Shown: one piece after another, positions 30,939 to 36,254 of the stretch
Numbering within the stretch: the first letter of the stretch is position 1
How the letters are laid out: each line of letters opens with the position of its first letter
Assembly (NCBI GenBank): GCA_964627795.1
Contig: CAZVLF010000003.1
Coordinates: 742 to 64,741, forward strand
Direction of reading: 5' to 3'
Length of the DNA stretch: 64,000 bases
From: an uncultured Rickettsiales bacterium
GTDB taxonomy: Bacteria > Pseudomonadota > Alphaproteobacteria > Rickettsiales > CANDYO01
The notes under the pieces: generated by a model
Seen by the model: only the letters and a program-made list of their open reading frames with translations
The model's database searches: none
What the model was told of the DNA's origin: nothing
Made by a program: the position numbers and the translations under genes

Positions 30939-32954
30939 ATGACCAAAAAAAATAACAAAAATTACCCATTAGAAGCTCAAATTTTCCCCTTTGCTATTCT
31001 TGCTCTATTAAGCGCTTATCTTCATTATCATCAAAAATCAGATGAAGAGTATAATGACATTTTAAATTCTCCTCAAAAAACTATTTATCAATGGTCACCA
31101 ATTATTATAACTGACGTAGTTATTTTTCTAAGCTTTGTTACCGCTCTTATTTTGTATTTTAATCCTGGAAGATCAAATTTTAGGCAAACAAACTTTGATA
31201 AGATGATGAGTAATATAAGCATGCTTGTTCCATCACTTATCGCAGGGCTTGCAAAAGGTGGAACTACAATAACCAAAGTTATTATCGGGGATAGAGCTGA
31301 TGCAATTAATGAAAATGCAATAAAAGCTGTTGCTGTAACAGAGCAGCTTTTTAGACTTGGGGCAATAATAGAAAGAATGCATGAGCATTTCATAGCGCGA
31401 GCTGTTGAAAGAGAAGGTAATTTTGAAGTTAGGTATATTAGGCAAATAGCGCAAAGCTTAGATGAGTTTTTTACTAACTCAATTGAATTAGCAGTAGCAG
31501 CAACTTATAGAATGGCATTATTAGGATTTTTAGAGAGATATGTGCCAATGGCAACTGATAAAAATAAATTAGAGCTTTTAGCTTTTTTATATCTTCTTGC
31601 AGATGCAGCAGAAGGGGCAATTAATTCACAAATTAATAATGTTGCCTTAGCTGTTGAAATAGTTGCCGATAATTATTTCATATCCAAAGTTTTAAAAAAT
31701 TTTGGTATTGCTGGAAATAGAGCAATTATAGTTAAAGAGCCAGAAGTTATTGCTGCTGTTCGTAAGGTAGTTGATTCTATAGCTGAAGAAGCAGAAAAAC
31801 TGGCTCAAGAAGCAAGAAGAATTATCCAAGAGACAGAAGAAAAAATAAGATTAGAAATGCAAGAATTAAAAGAAGAGATCAATAAAAAAGCTGAGGAAGC
31901 TTTATTTTATCTGTCTAAGCTTGAGGTAGTTCAAAAAAGTCTAGATATGCTTTCTTCTCTAAAACAAAAAGCCGAAGAAAAATTAATGGAAATGGAAAGT
32001 TTGGTTGGCGAAAAAGCAAGTGAACTTTATGAAGCAATTAAGCATAGTAAAATGTTACAAGAAACAATAGTGGAATTGAATCAAACAAAAGAAAAAGTGG
32101 AAAATGAATTAAAAGAAGCAGCAAAAGAGTTAAAAAGATATGTGAATAAATTTGGACATATGATGGTAGAATTAGAGCATAGTTCAGCTGCTATAATTCA
32201 GAAAATTTGGAGAGGCAATAAAGCACGCAAAATTTATAAAGATATGAAGATAAAATCTATAGCGGCAATGATTCAGTCCTTTGAAGAAGTTAGAGAAAAA
32301 AGGGAAAAAGAGCAAGCAAAGTTAGAAGATGGAGAAACAAAGAAGAAAGATATTAGTGCGTTACGATCTAGTGTTACAGGTGAGGCTTTATCAATAGTAG
32401 TGGAGAAAAATATTAAAGAAAAAAACAAAAATAAAAAAAATTCTTTCTTTAACATATTTTCTCATAATGATGAAGAGGGTGACGAAGGTGAGCATAATGG
32501 GTTTCTTGGTAGATTATTTCATTATAAACCTGAAAAAAATAAACCTAAGCAATCTACAATCAACGGAAAAAACACTCAAAAAAATTCTAATAAGGCTAGT
32601 GCTCAAGAAGTTAAGAAAGACCATGCAGCTGAAGATGATAGGGTTATATTTTCTAATGAATATGTTAAGGTTGATCAAAAAAATATTTCTTATATAGATT
32701 TAAAATTAACGAAAAGAAGCAATCTTCCTATTAAGAAGGATGTTGAAAAGGTAGAAACAGATAGAAATAAAAAGGAAATAGAAACGCAATTAGAGCAAAA
32801 AATATCTATTAATTTAGAAAATTTTGTAGCTTTTGAGTTTAAAGATAAAAATAAAACAAGTCATTTCTCAAATTATAATGAATTTAATCAATTAAATAAT
32901 GACGTTTATTTGGTAGGGATATTTGCTGAAAATAATAAATATATGTTAATATAA
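30939..32954 (+). CDS. Membrane-anchored coiled-coil protein with IQ calmodulin-binding motif (orphan, putative effector; start placed at ATG 30939 after AAGGAG)
   Basis: Two N-terminal hydrophobic segments, long E/K heptad-rich region, IQKIWRGNKARKIY, K/N-rich C-terminal third, ends VYLVGIFAENNKYMLI. Confidence 0.85.
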   Translation: MTKKNNKNYPLEAQIFPFAILALLSAYLHYHQKSDEEYNDILNSPQKTIYQWSPIIITDVVIFLSFVTALILYFNPGRSNFRQTNFDKMMSNISMLVPSLIAGLAKGGTTITKVIIGDRADAINENAIKAVAVTEQLFRLGAIIERMHEHFIARAVEREGNFEVRYIRQIAQSLDEFFTNSIELAVAATYRMALLGFLERYVPMATDKNKLELLAFLYLLADAAEGAINSQINNVALAVEIVADNYFISKVLKNFGIAGNRAIIVKEPEVIAAVRKVVDSIAEEAEKLAQEARRIIQETEEKIRLEMQELKEEINKKAEEALFYLSKLEVVQKSLDMLSSLKQKAEEKLMEMESLVGEKASELYEAIKHSKMLQETIVELNQTKEKVENELKEAAKELKRYVNKFGHMMVELEHSSAAIIQKIWRGNKARKIYKDMKIKSIAAMIQSFEEVREKREKEQAKLEDGETKKKDISALRSSVTGEALSIVVEKNIKEKNKNKKNSFFNIFSHNDEEGDEGEHNGFLGRLFHYKPEKNKPKQSTINGKNTQKNSNKASAQEVKKDHAAEDDRVIFSNEYVKVDQKNISYIDLKLTKRSNLPIKKDVEKVETDRNKKEIETQLEQKISINLENFVAFEFKDKNKTSHFSNYNEFNQLNNDVYLVGIFAENNKYMLI

Positions 32955-33022
32955 AATGAGTATGTTAACTTCTTCTTAACTTTTTCGCTTTAGTATTATT
33001 TTCCTAAATAAGGGAGGAGTTT

Positions 33023-34087
33023 ATGGAAGCATATTACGCTGAGCGACTTTTACAAGAGTTGAAAAGCCGTTATGAAGAAGTTAAATATAATATTGGGAAA
33101 TTAGAATATCTTGATAATATTTTATCATCTTCAGAAGAATTTGATATTTCAAAAAAAGATGGGCTTTTAACAATCCTTATTTCTGATCAAGAAAATTTTA
33201 GCGATAATTCAATTGTTAAATATAATAGTTATCAAAAACTAATTGATCTTATTAATGAACAAGATAATTCAAATCAAATTCATTACATTGAAAATTATGC
33301 TCATTATGATACGAGTAAAGTAACAGGATTAATAGACTATAGCAAAATTTCATCTATAACAATTGAGCAAGTTTTAGATTATAATCCGGTTTATTATGCA
33401 AGTGATGTTGAGGGTAAACTTGAATATAGCCAAGTTGAATATATCTATTCAAGCCAAATTTTAAATTATGATGCAACTATTGCTGCAAGTAAAATTTTAG
33501 GAAAATTTGACTCCAATCAAATTAATAAAGTTGAGGTAAGCCAGTTTGTTAATAAATTTACCAGTAATGAAATAAATTATATTTACCTTAATCAAATAAA
33601 TGACTTAAGCTCAATAATTGAAGCAAGTTTGATTGAAGGGGAATTTCCCTCGTCTATTTTTGATAGTACTGTGTTGCAATCTTATATGGGTAGCGCATCA
33701 GATGTACTTGATTTTTCATTTCCTTTTGGAGCTAGAACTGACAGTCCTGGTACTTTATGGGCATGTAATAATATTGGGATTAATGCACAATCTAATAAAA
33801 AAATAGCAGGTTCAACTGATCCAAGTGAAATGATGAAAGCGATAAATCTCTGTATTATATTTGCGAATTCTATGGGCACTAAGGATTACTCTATGACATT
33901 TAGTAATAACTATTATCATATAACAACTACTACGAGTCTTAATATGGCTCTTAGCAGTGATCTTATTTCTTGTTATAACGTGCCAAAAATTGGAGCAGCA
34001 GGGGTGCCATTAGATTTTCTGGCTGATTGTTTGGCTACAATTAGTGGTAATTCACCAGATAACAGTATTTTTGCTAATTATACATAA
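33023..34087 (+). CDS. Repeat-stalk protein, paralog 1 of 3 (unknown family)
   Basis: Strong SD GGAGGAG; N-terminal RYEEVKYNIG..KYNSYQ; YSQV/SSQI/ASKI/VSQF repeats; C-terminal GTLWAC..IAGSTDPSEM..C..LADCLATISGNSP. Confidence 0.85.
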   Translation: MEAYYAERLLQELKSRYEEVKYNIGKLEYLDNILSSSEEFDISKKDGLLTILISDQENFSDNSIVKYNSYQKLIDLINEQDNSNQIHYIENYAHYDTSKVTGLIDYSKISSITIEQVLDYNPVYYASDVEGKLEYSQVEYIYSSQILNYDATIAASKILGKFDSNQINKVEVSQFVNKFTSNEINYIYLNQINDLSSIIEASLIEGEFPSSIFDSTVLQSYMGSASDVLDFSFPFGARTDSPGTLWACNNIGINAQSNKKIAGSTDPSEMMKAINLCIIFANSMGTKDYSMTFSNNYYHITTTTSLNMALSSDLISCYNVPKIGAAGVPLDFLADCLATISGNSPDNSIFANYT

Positions 34088-35209: not shown

Positions 35210-35234
35210 AAATATAATAAGAGGAGTATGAAAA

Positions 35235-36254
35235 ATGGGTTATGATTTTGCTACAAGAAAAGATCAATTTGAAAGAAGATATAAAGAAGCTGAAAATATT
35301 ATTGGAACCGACGATGAGTTAAATGAGTTTATTCAAGTAGGAACAAGCCTTGATTTAACTTCAGCTTTAGAATTAAGTTCTTATATCATTGATAATCAGC
35401 AGCAAGCTAGTGATGTTTATGTTAAATTTAATGCATATCAAGATATATTAAAAGTGTTGAAATACTATAATACTGAAGAGATGATAGATTATCTTAGATT
35501 TGCTCAAATACCTGCAAGCCGGATTGATGGAATTTTGCAGGCAAGCCAAATTGATTATATCAATGTTTCTCAAATAGATAATTTTAATCCAACTATCTAT
35601 GCTAGCGATATTTTAGGGCAATTTAAAACTGAACAGATAAATAAATTAGATGCAAGCCAAATTATTGATTACAACCCCATTATTTATGTTAGTGACATTG
35701 TGGACAAAGTGGATGCAAGCCAAATAAATAATATCTATGCAAGCCAGATAAATGGATTAATTTCAAGTGAGCAAATAGAATATCTGAAAAAAAGTGATGT
35801 TATTGATATGGATTCTTACCTTCAAGCTTCAAGAATATCTGGACAATTACAGACATCACAAATTTCAAGCACAATTACTAGTTCAATAAGCGATAATAAT
35901 TTAGGAGAAATAGATTATAGCTATTTTGTTGTAGGCCAATATGACTTGAATAATCCACCGCATAAAGCCGGGATATATGCGTGCAATACTGGGGAAGATA
36001 CCTCAGGTATAACAATAGTGCCAATATTTGGTTCTGATGATGGTGTTGAACAGCTTCAAGCGATGGTTAAGTGTAGCTTATGGGCAAATTATCGAAGTAG
36101 TTTTAATCCTACTTTATATTATACTTCAAGTAGCGATGTTTCATCGTGCTATTTTAAAACTTTTATATCAAGTGCAGATGCTTTTAATAATTGCCTTGCT
36201 ATCATTAATGGAGTAAATCCATGTAATACAGAGTTCGCAAACCTTTGCACTTAA
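35235..36254 (+). CDS. Repeat-stalk protein, paralog 3 of 3 (unknown family)
   Basis: SD GAGGAG; RYKEAENIIG..KFNAYQ; many ASQI/ASRI/ASDI repeats; GIYAC..IFGSDDGVEQ..C..FNNCLAIINGVNPCNTEFAN. Confidence 0.85.
   Translation: MGYDFATRKDQFERRYKEAENIIGTDDELNEFIQVGTSLDLTSALELSSYIIDNQQQASDVYVKFNAYQDILKVLKYYNTEEMIDYLRFAQIPASRIDGILQASQIDYINVSQIDNFNPTIYASDILGQFKTEQINKLDASQIIDYNPIIYVSDIVDKVDASQINNIYASQINGLISSEQIEYLKKSDVIDMDSYLQASRISGQLQTSQISSTITSSISDNNLGEIDYSYFVVGQYDLNNPPHKAGIYACNTGEDTSGITIVPIFGSDDGVEQLQAMVKCSLWANYRSSFNPTLYYTSSSDVSSCYFKTFISSADAFNNCLAIINGVNPCNTEFANLCT

Follow-up and report, generated by a model that had tools for sequence, protein, structure and literature searches.

Tandem paralogous proteins with phage-fibre-like stalks and an adjacent IQ-motif gene in an AT-rich alphaproteobacterial genome fragment

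Introduction

Fibres resembling phage tail fibres are put to cellular, non-phage use by Bdellovibrio bacteriovorus, a bacterium living in or on cells of others, where they form the mosaic adhesive trimer (MAT) family (PMC10769870). In this family a signal peptide precedes a beta-rich, conserved N-terminal domain of ~130 amino acids (aa); the tips vary, and an S74 chaperone is often present (PMC10769870). Here we describe a locus at positions 30939 to 36254 of a 64-kb stretch of DNA from an uncultured Rickettsiales bacterium (contig CAZVLF010000003.1; the whole stretch is called the window below), in which a gene for a membrane and coiled-coil protein with an IQ motif (gene 1) is followed by three paralogous genes for fibre-like proteins (genes 2, 3 and 4, together the trio).

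Other fibrous adhesins are built from repeats with a head. The trimeric autotransporter adhesins, such as YadA and BadA, are often encoded by tandem paralogues in alphaproteobacteria, and they depend on a Sec signal and on a YadA beta-barrel that anchors the C-terminus. We know of no phage-fibre-derived proteins outside prophages in intracellular alphaproteobacteria, and to our knowledge the host-contact structures of these bacteria are poorly known, autotransporters and the type IV system apart. For the IQ motif, the described parallel is Legionella SidJ, a glutamylase of pseudokinase fold that binds host calmodulin through such a motif (PMC6858067).

The original prediction, made from the letters of the window, took the four genes as one host-contact system. 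We found that genes 2-4 form a family with a second tandem trio elsewhere that lacks gene 1, that their stalks resemble those of phage tail fibres, and that stalk length is matched within each genome.

Results

Domain plan of the three paralogues

Genes 2-4 encode proteins of ~40 kDa with a mutual identity of 28-30% over the full length. All three begin with a helical N-domain (~90 aa), continue in a stalk (~137 aa) and end in an alpha/beta head (~110 aa) that contains Cys. They are acidic, with isoelectric points of 4.2-4.3, and lack a hydrophobic N-terminus. The original prediction of a paralogous set with an N-domain, a repeat stalk, a Cys head and no Sec signal was borne out.

The two end domains were found to be specific to the family. 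AlphaFold2 placed helices at residues 5-23, 27-35, 41-57 and 62-89 of the gene 4 N-domain, with a predicted local distance difference test score (pLDDT) of 61-85 for the block, and the N-domain part of the trio profile was matched by members of its own family only in an exhaustive search. The gene 4 head, modelled alone, reached a pLDDT of 75 and a predicted template modelling (TM) score of 0.73. A Foldseek comparison, which had been suggested as a check, returned no match of the head model in PDB or BFVD (E >0.5, TM-score <0.35). The full gene 4 model was poor (pLDDT 51), and a Foldseek search with it is meaningless. No significant match of genes 2-4 was found in Pfam, NCBIfam, PHROG or PADLOC, and the trio profile matched no PDB sequence at E <=10.

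The stalks of the three paralogues align almost without gaps. Autocorrelation of the gene 4 stalk gave peaks at lags of 8-9, 17 and 29 residues; in the monomer AlphaFold2 model this region has a pLDDT below 35.

Each of the three proteins contains 4-6 Cys, all within the last ~110 residues, in the head. Two Cys are invariant across the family (7/7 members). A C-terminal pair, PC.T...C, is present in full in genes 3 and 4 and in the b and c genes of the second trio, and both its Cys are missing in gene 2 and in a short-stalk member, P0049 (both relatives are described below). The C-terminus of gene 3 (...PCDTIFNYQCA) is similar to that of gene b of the second trio (...RCQTIFNYEC). This pattern of conserved and co-varying Cys suggests disulfides, and hence a compartment outside the cytoplasm that is oxidising; the proteins would get there by a route other than Sec.

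Identities as an R-body (Reb) protein, a trimeric autotransporter or a polymorphic toxin were considered and rejected: no such family was matched, and the heads are homologous, not variable.

Similarity of the stalk to phage tail fibres

We searched 1.84 billion representative proteins exhaustively with a hidden Markov model (HMM) of the trio, which gave 103 matches at E <=0.001. Apart from the members of the family and a gene 2 fragment described below, the matches examined, a sample of these, were ~200-4,600 aa, mostly long, and aligned only to profile positions ~85-220. One of them, P0012, matched Pfam Phage-tail_3, phrog_31 ('central tail fiber J') and the tip-attachment protein J in PDB; another, P0014, carries Peptidase_S74 and is an S74-chaperone fibre; other stalk matches are members of tail-fibre and virion PHROGs. 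The context of P0008, the best long match, was uninformative. In the host specificity protein J of Ruegeria phage DSS3_PM1 (QGH74727.1), residues 1046-1182 scored 48 bits with the family HMM.

As a control, the matched sequences were scored forward (median 71 bits), reversed (median 22, maximum 55) and shuffled (no matches). Because the forward scores far exceed the reversed ones, the similarity is direction-specific and real, but periodic composition accounts for part of it, and common descent of the trio stalk and the phage-fibre stalk is likely, not proven.

The likeness was confined to the stalk. No significant phage attachment or chaperone domain (Phage-tail_3, S74 or a tail-fibre PHROG) was found in genes 2-4, a tblastn search of 50,697 phage genomes with gene 4 gave no match, and a search by sequence found no solved structure containing the stalk repeat. 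There was no phage or prophage tail module around the trio, the rest of the window consisting of housekeeping genes and an insertion sequence (IS). The description of the proteins as fibre-like was thus upheld by the profile matches to stalk repeats of phage J or central tail fibres and of S74 fibres. A match to a described family such as a phage fibre, an outcome that the original prediction had named as refuting it, held for the stalk only; it failed for the N-domain and the head, neither of which had a family, sequence or fold match.

A second trio without gene 1

Beyond the window proteins, the exhaustive search found only three full-length members of the family, P0006, P0007 and P0010 (348, 362 and 374 aa). 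They are encoded by consecutive genes, here a, b and c, with gaps of 21 and 9 nucleotides (nt), on L082, a 9.1-kb contig of 33% GC from metagenome 3300071567 of the Joint Genome Institute (JGI). The flanking genes are gltX, pgeF and small unrelated open reading frames (ORFs). The trio is intact, and ccmC and another gene beside it are broken; this genome is, on the state of its reading frames, decaying while its trio stays open. No relative of gene 1 was found by tblastn on the 9.1-kb contig.

In the same contig, an ATPase-like gene lies in fragments (three ORFs, 159-1504, + strand), ccmC is split (2092-2800, - strand) and a tRNA-Ser(GCT) occupies 1864-1956. The c paralogue, P0010, ends in a Pro/Ser-rich tail (8200-8311; PSPVPSPTPSPSPAPNPL) that is unique among the members.

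A further member, P0049, has 235 aa and a short stalk. It stands at the start of contigs from four samples, SRR23592397 (L083) among them (L083-L086), next to genes for DUF2155, a HAD hydrolase, ntrX, ntrY and mfd. All four contigs begin exactly 179 nt upstream of P0049, which suggests that a repeat, either an IS or a paralogue, breaks every assembly at this place. P0003 is a 65-aa fragment of a copy of gene 2 from a near-identical strain.

The family is extremely rare, with three lineages among ~15 billion proteins. Viral contigs of IMG/VR scanned with the trio profile gave no match, and a metagenome scan with the alignment of the three sequences returned only one strain contig, L087. A word-index search with the trio profile recovered only the window's own protein, low-complexity words having swamped the candidates.

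Since the trio recurs in tandem in L082 without gene 1, we regard it as the conserved unit. The proposed four-gene system, with gene 1 co-occurring with the trio, is not supported, given the L082 trio and the lack of gene 1 homologues; within the reach of the data, one other trio locus on a short contig, this is an outcome that the original prediction had named as refuting it. Genes 2-4, and not the quartet, are the probable functional unit.

Age of the triplication and matched stalk lengths

We compared the two trios by alignment score. Every L082 paralogue scores higher over the full length against some window paralogue than against the paralogues of its own genome, and the cross-genome preference also holds for the N-domain and head scored separately (6/6 comparisons). 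Because the L082 paralogues are closer to those of the window than to each other, the duplications predate the split of the two lineages. The full-length best matches fall in gene order (gene 2 with a, gene 3 with b, gene 4 with c; chance ~1/27), and the best partner of the gene 2 N-domain is gene a.

To compare the stalks, we took the distance between two invariant residues (Y70 and S202 of gene 2) as stalk length. It is 132, 130 and 131 aa in the window trio, 148, 148 and 145 aa in the L082 trio, and 48 aa in P0049. The difference between the two trios corresponds to about one 17-residue double repeat. Given paralogues older than the split, equal lengths within each genome need either parallel insertions and deletions under constraint or gene conversion limited to the stalk. 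DNA identity among the stalks is 60-72%, so any conversion was not recent. We favour a shared length constraint, with chains in register or spanning the same distance, over gene conversion, and the within-genome matching of these sequences suggests co-assembly.

Gene 1

Gene 1 has no homologue among 5.8 billion proteins, searched with the full length and with the N-terminal 280 aa. It also had no match in the IMG/VR viral contigs or PADLOC, and only a non-significant coiled-coil match in PDB. Outside the IQ motif, its family matches were weak and of coiled-coil type only. The heptad region was scored at the a and d positions; it lacks Pro and almost lacks Gly.

The motif IQKIWRGNKARKIY agrees with the full IQ consensus [FILV]Qxxx[RK]Gxxx[RK]xx[FILVWY] and scores 22.7 bits against a gathering score of 20.3 for PF00612 (E 7.3e-5). 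When gene 1 was shuffled 20,000 times, the strict expression turned up in 31 of the shuffled sequences, and the motif is its sole instance in the window's long ORFs (21,242 residues). One such match would be unsurprising over a proteome of ~1,000 proteins, and we therefore treat the motif as a lead, not a result. The description of gene 1 as carrying transmembrane segments, a coiled coil and an IQ motif stood for the canonical IQ motif and the heptad region; of the transmembrane segments, one was strong and two were weaker.

On this evidence, gene 1 is best treated as an independent, lineage-specific orphan that is linked to the cassette by adjacency only. Its predicted features make it a candidate membrane-bound, host-facing coiled-coil protein and, through the IQ motif, a candidate binder of host calmodulin.

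Layout and translation signals of the locus

The coordinates of the block and of other window features are given in Table 1. The four genes are intact and co-oriented, with intergenic gaps of 68, 15 and 25 nt, and the predicted arrangement between tRNA-Pro and ubiE agrees with the ORF coordinates. On the opposite strand upstream lies pccA, and ubiE and ubiB lie downstream; the wider flanks include, besides these and tRNA-Pro, genes for HIT and an M23 peptidase as well as comEC and dxs. Translation of gene 1 could also begin further upstream, at a TTG at 30924; the ATG at 30939 lies 8 nt past GAAGGAG, and the entry in the protein collection is the 671-aa form. At 30% GC, random codons would include ~8% stops by arithmetic, so open frames of 340-670 codons are not due to chance.

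The ribosome-binding sites of genes 1-4 are, in order, AGGAG, GGAGG, AGGAG and AGGAG, 7-10 nt upstream of the ATG. The GGAG/GAGG core precedes just 10 of the 48 other window ORFs of at least 120 aa, which confirmed that clear Shine-Dalgarno sites on all four genes are unusual here. The GC content of genes 1-4 (0.29-0.315) and that at third codon positions (GC3, 0.15-0.21) are similar to the remaining window; being native in both, the genes are not marked as recent imports. No tRNA-Pro-derived att site or direct repeat, as a mark of an island, was found downstream, and tblastn of all four proteins against the 64-kb window found no relative beyond the block.

An A/U-rich 9-bp hairpin overlaps the gene 1 stop codon and is followed by a U-rich tract. 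It may act as a weak terminator or as an attenuator ahead of the trio; its RNA fold z-score is just -1.75, which is weak evidence. A terminator scan did not call this hairpin and found no strong terminator between genes 1 and 2, although promoter and terminator scans are uninformative in this AT-rich DNA, where counts equal those of shuffles. An independent Logan assembly of the same sample (SRR10083296; start of L090 / L001, window ~30690) is broken 249 nt upstream of gene 1. This break falls inside or at tRNA-Pro, where the window's own assembly is continuous.

Table 1 Features of the block and of the rest of the window (positions in the window; residues refer to the encoded protein; KD, Kyte-Doolittle hydropathy).
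Feature	Position	Strand	Description
tRNA-Pro(TGG)	30654-30730	+	ARAGORN; Rfam 65.9 bits; left boundary of block
Gene 1	30939-32954	+	671 aa
Gene 1, residues 10-30			Moderate hydrophobic stretch; KD 1.5, uncertain as transmembrane
Gene 1, residues 53-75	31095-31163	+	Predicted transmembrane segment; KD 19-residue mean 2.47; sole strong one
Gene 1, residues 90-117			Weak hydrophobic stretch; KD 1.1-1.3, uncertain as transmembrane
Gene 1, residues 120-260			Region read as helical from sequence
Gene 1, residues 269-415	31743-32183	+	Heptad-patterned, E/K/L-rich; probable coiled coil
Gene 1 IQ motif, residues 420-433	32196-32237	+	IQKIWRGNKARKIY; Pfam PF00612
Gene 1, residues 450-600			K/N/E-rich tail
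A/U-rich 9-bp hairpin and U-rich tract	32945-32969	+	Overlaps gene 1 stop codon
Gene 2	33023-34087	+	354 aa; 'a'-type fibre-like paralogue
Gene 3	34103-35209	+	368 aa; 'b'-type paralogue
Gene 4	35235-36254	+	339 aa; 'c'-type paralogue
Gene 4 N-domain, residues 1-89	35235-35501	+	Family-specific, helical
Gene 4 stalk, residues 90-227	35502-35915	+	Degenerate 8-9/17-residue 'aSQIxxIxaSxIxGxl' repeats
Gene 4 head, residues 228-339	35916-36251	+	Cys-containing alpha/beta, b-b-a-b-b-a
IS5-type element	~10470-11814		DDE_Tnp_1 and DUF772; transposase ORF 10758-11582 (+)
Methyl-accepting chemotaxis protein	785-2449	-	MCPsignal and 4HB_MCP
TLC ATP/ADP translocase	19644-21122	-
Ankyrin-repeat protein	8169-10109	-
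Ankyrin-repeat protein	18576-19478	-
Orphan ORF	12199-13620	-	Intact; no Pfam family
Orphan ORF	27683-28435	-	Intact; no Pfam family
Orphan ORF	56175-57488	-	Intact; no Pfam family
Orphan ORF	57536-59020	-	Intact; no Pfam family
LuxR-type HTH remnants	61463-61725	+	Two short adjoining ORFs (…LREKQCLELIDKGY / …SPRTIESHINNIKQKIG…)

Insertion sequences in strain copies of the locus

Two contigs from near-identical strains carry IS copies within the trio. Contig L087 (VFQO010016430.1) is 97.7% identical to window 35138-35951, and its first 1345 nt are an IS5-like copy, 98.8% identical to the window element, that abuts position 35138, codon 345 of the 368 of gene 3. This IS5-type element is, or recently was, active, as its two near-identical copies indicate. 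Gene 4 of L087 has an uninterrupted frame over 239 codons and differs from the window by 6 synonymous and 12 non-synonymous changes. Contig L089 (SRR9289780) is 99.2% identical to window 32966-33201 and then enters an IS6-family element (rve / DDE_Tnp_IS240; 237-970 of the contig), which cuts gene 2 after about codon 60 and has no copy in the 64-kb window. At its far end, L089 closes with 24 nt that match window 10447-10470, beside the end of the IS5 element.

The changes in gene 4 give a ratio of non-synonymous to synonymous polymorphism (pN/pS) of ~0.47. From the insertions together with this ratio it follows that the cassette is not indispensable, and it can evidently be lost in some strains, to judge from these contigs. 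Assemblies end at IS copies, which introduces an ascertainment bias, and the IS alleles in L087 and L089 could be minority ones.

Host genome and other window genes

The window encodes a TLC ATP/ADP translocase, two ankyrin-repeat proteins, an IS5-type element and a chemoreceptor, and is otherwise ordinary housekeeping. The closest relatives of UbiE in a scan of genome contigs are alphaproteobacterial, at <=54% identity (Bartonella, Kordiimonadaceae, Micavibrio). By its gene content, the genome is that of an AT-rich (~30% GC) alphaproteobacterium of obligate-intracellular type, for which a place in the Rickettsiales is plausible. The methyl-accepting chemotaxis protein stands alongside the translocase and the two ankyrin-repeat proteins; on these predicted functions the genome is of an energy-parasitic, intracellular type, yet has retained a chemoreceptor.

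Further intact ORFs without a Pfam family (250-494 aa) are listed in Table 1; the tandem orphans at 56175-59020 are not paralogous to each other. Two short adjoining ORFs resemble the halves of a broken LuxR-type helix-turn-helix (HTH) regulator. The earlier statement that other orphans of the window are broken could be followed only in part, these LuxR-type remnants being the one clear case.

Discussion

We propose that the trio is a domesticated phage-fibre derivative, a co-expressed cassette of three paralogues that form length-matched fibres, and our belief in this reading is about evenly balanced. The cassette would derive from a phage fibre and would have been kept outside any prophage by a few AT-rich, genome-reduced intracellular alphaproteobacteria. 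Closely spaced and strongly translated, the three genes would form one operon whose products are made together and assemble in register; the result would be a mixed a-b-c fibre or three fibres of equal length that share a base. This base would be held by the N-domains, the Cys-stabilised alpha/beta knobs at the far end would be the binding tip, and the bacteria would use the cassette for some contact function. The housekeeping neighbours of the trio and its native GC and GC3 speak against a prophage and against recent arrival, and the strong Shine-Dalgarno sites are a signal of expression. What the sequences show is the structure and paralogy of the genes, the second trio and its lack of gene 1, the likeness of the stalk repeats and the matching of stalk lengths; trimerisation, co-assembly, export and binding are what we infer for these proteins.

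Several observations weigh against this reading. Trimerisation and co-assembly are proposals, and the stalk of the AlphaFold2 monomer is of low confidence. The proteins are acidic and have no signal peptide and no identified export system, so that a cytoplasmic location is conceivable, and the Cys pattern is imperfect, as P0006 (gene a of L082) retains one Cys of the PC.T...C pair. The stalk similarity is partly one of periodic composition, reversed sequences having scored up to 55 bits. Orthology between the two trios is not cleanly one-to-one: neighbour-joining bootstraps are 30-67%, and the domain partners are mosaic, the N-domain favouring gene 2 with a and gene 4 with c, the head favouring gene 3 with b, while the head of a pairs with gene 4 and the N-domain of b with gene 2. 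Gene conversion is the alternative to a length constraint, as the window stalks score 214-217 among themselves and 110-182 against the L082 stalks; a 16-aa indel explains part of this gap. P0049 is single, with no paralogue downstream, and a trio is thus not obligatory for the family. The surroundings of the second trio span just 9.1 kb, and a relative of gene 1 could lie elsewhere in that genome. Finally, an IS interrupts gene 2 (L089) or gene 3 (L087) in two near-identical strains, and gene 4 has a pN/pS of ~0.47.

These last two points would also be expected if the trio were a slowly decaying remnant of a tail-fibre module of a prophage or gene-transfer agent with no present function, as would the phage-type stalk and the extreme rarity of the family. 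We consider this unlikely, because six genes of 340-375 codons stay open at 30-33% GC in two lineages only ~30% identical, the L082 trio doing so beside visibly broken genes; the domain layout, the invariant Cys and the stalk length are conserved, all ribosome sites are strong and no other phage gene is nearby. Still less probable, in our view, is that the proteins are cytoplasmic, beta-helical, polymer-forming structural proteins akin to bactofilins rather than exported fibres. The missing signal peptide and the acidic isoelectric points would suit such filaments, and a related repeat protein, P0092, marginally matches bactofilin A (E 0.35). However, this match is non-significant, and no protein of the trio shares it with P0092; the family profile retrieves phage tail proteins and not cytoskeletal ones, and Cys that are conserved, co-vary and occur in a terminal knob alone agree better with a tip outside the cytoplasm.

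The quartet as one system, with gene 1 anchoring or translocating a heteromeric fibre and engaging host calmodulin through its IQ motif, accounts for the co-orientation, the 68-nt gap and the strong ribosome sites on all four genes. It would also give a role to the transmembrane segment, to the long coiled coil and to the IQ motif, which has the full consensus and seldom arises in shuffles, and no strong terminator separates genes 1 and 2. Yet the only other known trio has no gene 1 relative adjacent to it, gene 1 has no homologue while the trio family predates the split of two lineages, a weak A/U hairpin and U-tract sit at the gene 1 stop codon, and no sequence link joins gene 1 to the trio; we think it improbable that all four genes are one system. 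The same low credence applies to the fullest version, in which an obligate a-b-c heterotrimer with co-evolving stalk length would leave the cell by a non-Sec route, contact the host and work with a calmodulin-recruiting gene 1.

If the domesticated phage-fibre reading holds, a length-matched cassette of three paralogues would offer a compact model for the domestication of a phage fibre by a cell, in parallel to MAT of Bdellovibrio, and a heteromeric fibre, if true, would be unusual. What is new here is the end domains and the organisation as three paralogues; the phage-type fibre stalk is known. Neither the N-domain nor the knob resembles any sequence or fold in the collections searched, so that their structures, once solved, would be new folds. 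Few bacterial proteins are listed with an IQ motif of eukaryote type, and gene 1 is a further candidate. The weight of these points is limited by the great rarity of the family, by the dispensability in some strains that the IS insertions show and by a function that is wholly inferred.

Comparison with known systems

Gene 1 resembles SidJ as a protein of an intracellular-type bacterium bearing a eukaryote-type IQ motif. It differs in having no enzymatic domain and in having transmembrane segments and a coiled coil, and it shows no sequence similarity to SidJ. Inc proteins of inclusion membranes, considered here as an analogy only, are recognised by a bilobed hydrophobic domain, in which a short loop joins two transmembrane segments, and by a coiled coil in the cytosol after it. 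Gene 1 has a strong predicted segment at 53-75 and a weaker one at 10-30 with 22 residues between them, and then a probable coiled coil. No homology to Inc families was found.

Genes 2-4 share with the trimeric autotransporter adhesins a fibrous build of repeats and a head, and an arrangement as tandem paralogues. They differ in lacking a hydrophobic N-terminus and a Pfam match to a YadA-type anchor. With the phage J or central tail fibres, those of alphaproteobacterial phages included, they share the repeat '..SQI..(V/I)NAS.I.G.I..' with its period of 8-9/17, and a layout in which a stalk is followed by a distal domain. The phage fibres are 800-4,500 aa long, begin with J-type or baseplate N-terminal domains and are encoded among tail genes, whereas the proteins of the trio have ~350 aa, with a helical N-domain and a Cys knob that are both novel, and are encoded by three paralogues in a housekeeping neighbourhood.

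The trio could not be linked by sequence to MAT fibres. It differs from them in lacking a signal peptide and an S74 domain and in having homologous tips and a predicted alpha-helical N-domain of ~90 aa. Although the defining MAT features, a signal peptide and a beta-rich N-domain, are absent from the trio, the MAT family is by analogy its closest functional parallel: here too a conserved N-terminal domain is followed by a stalk of repeats and a binding tip at the far end, and a genome has several members.

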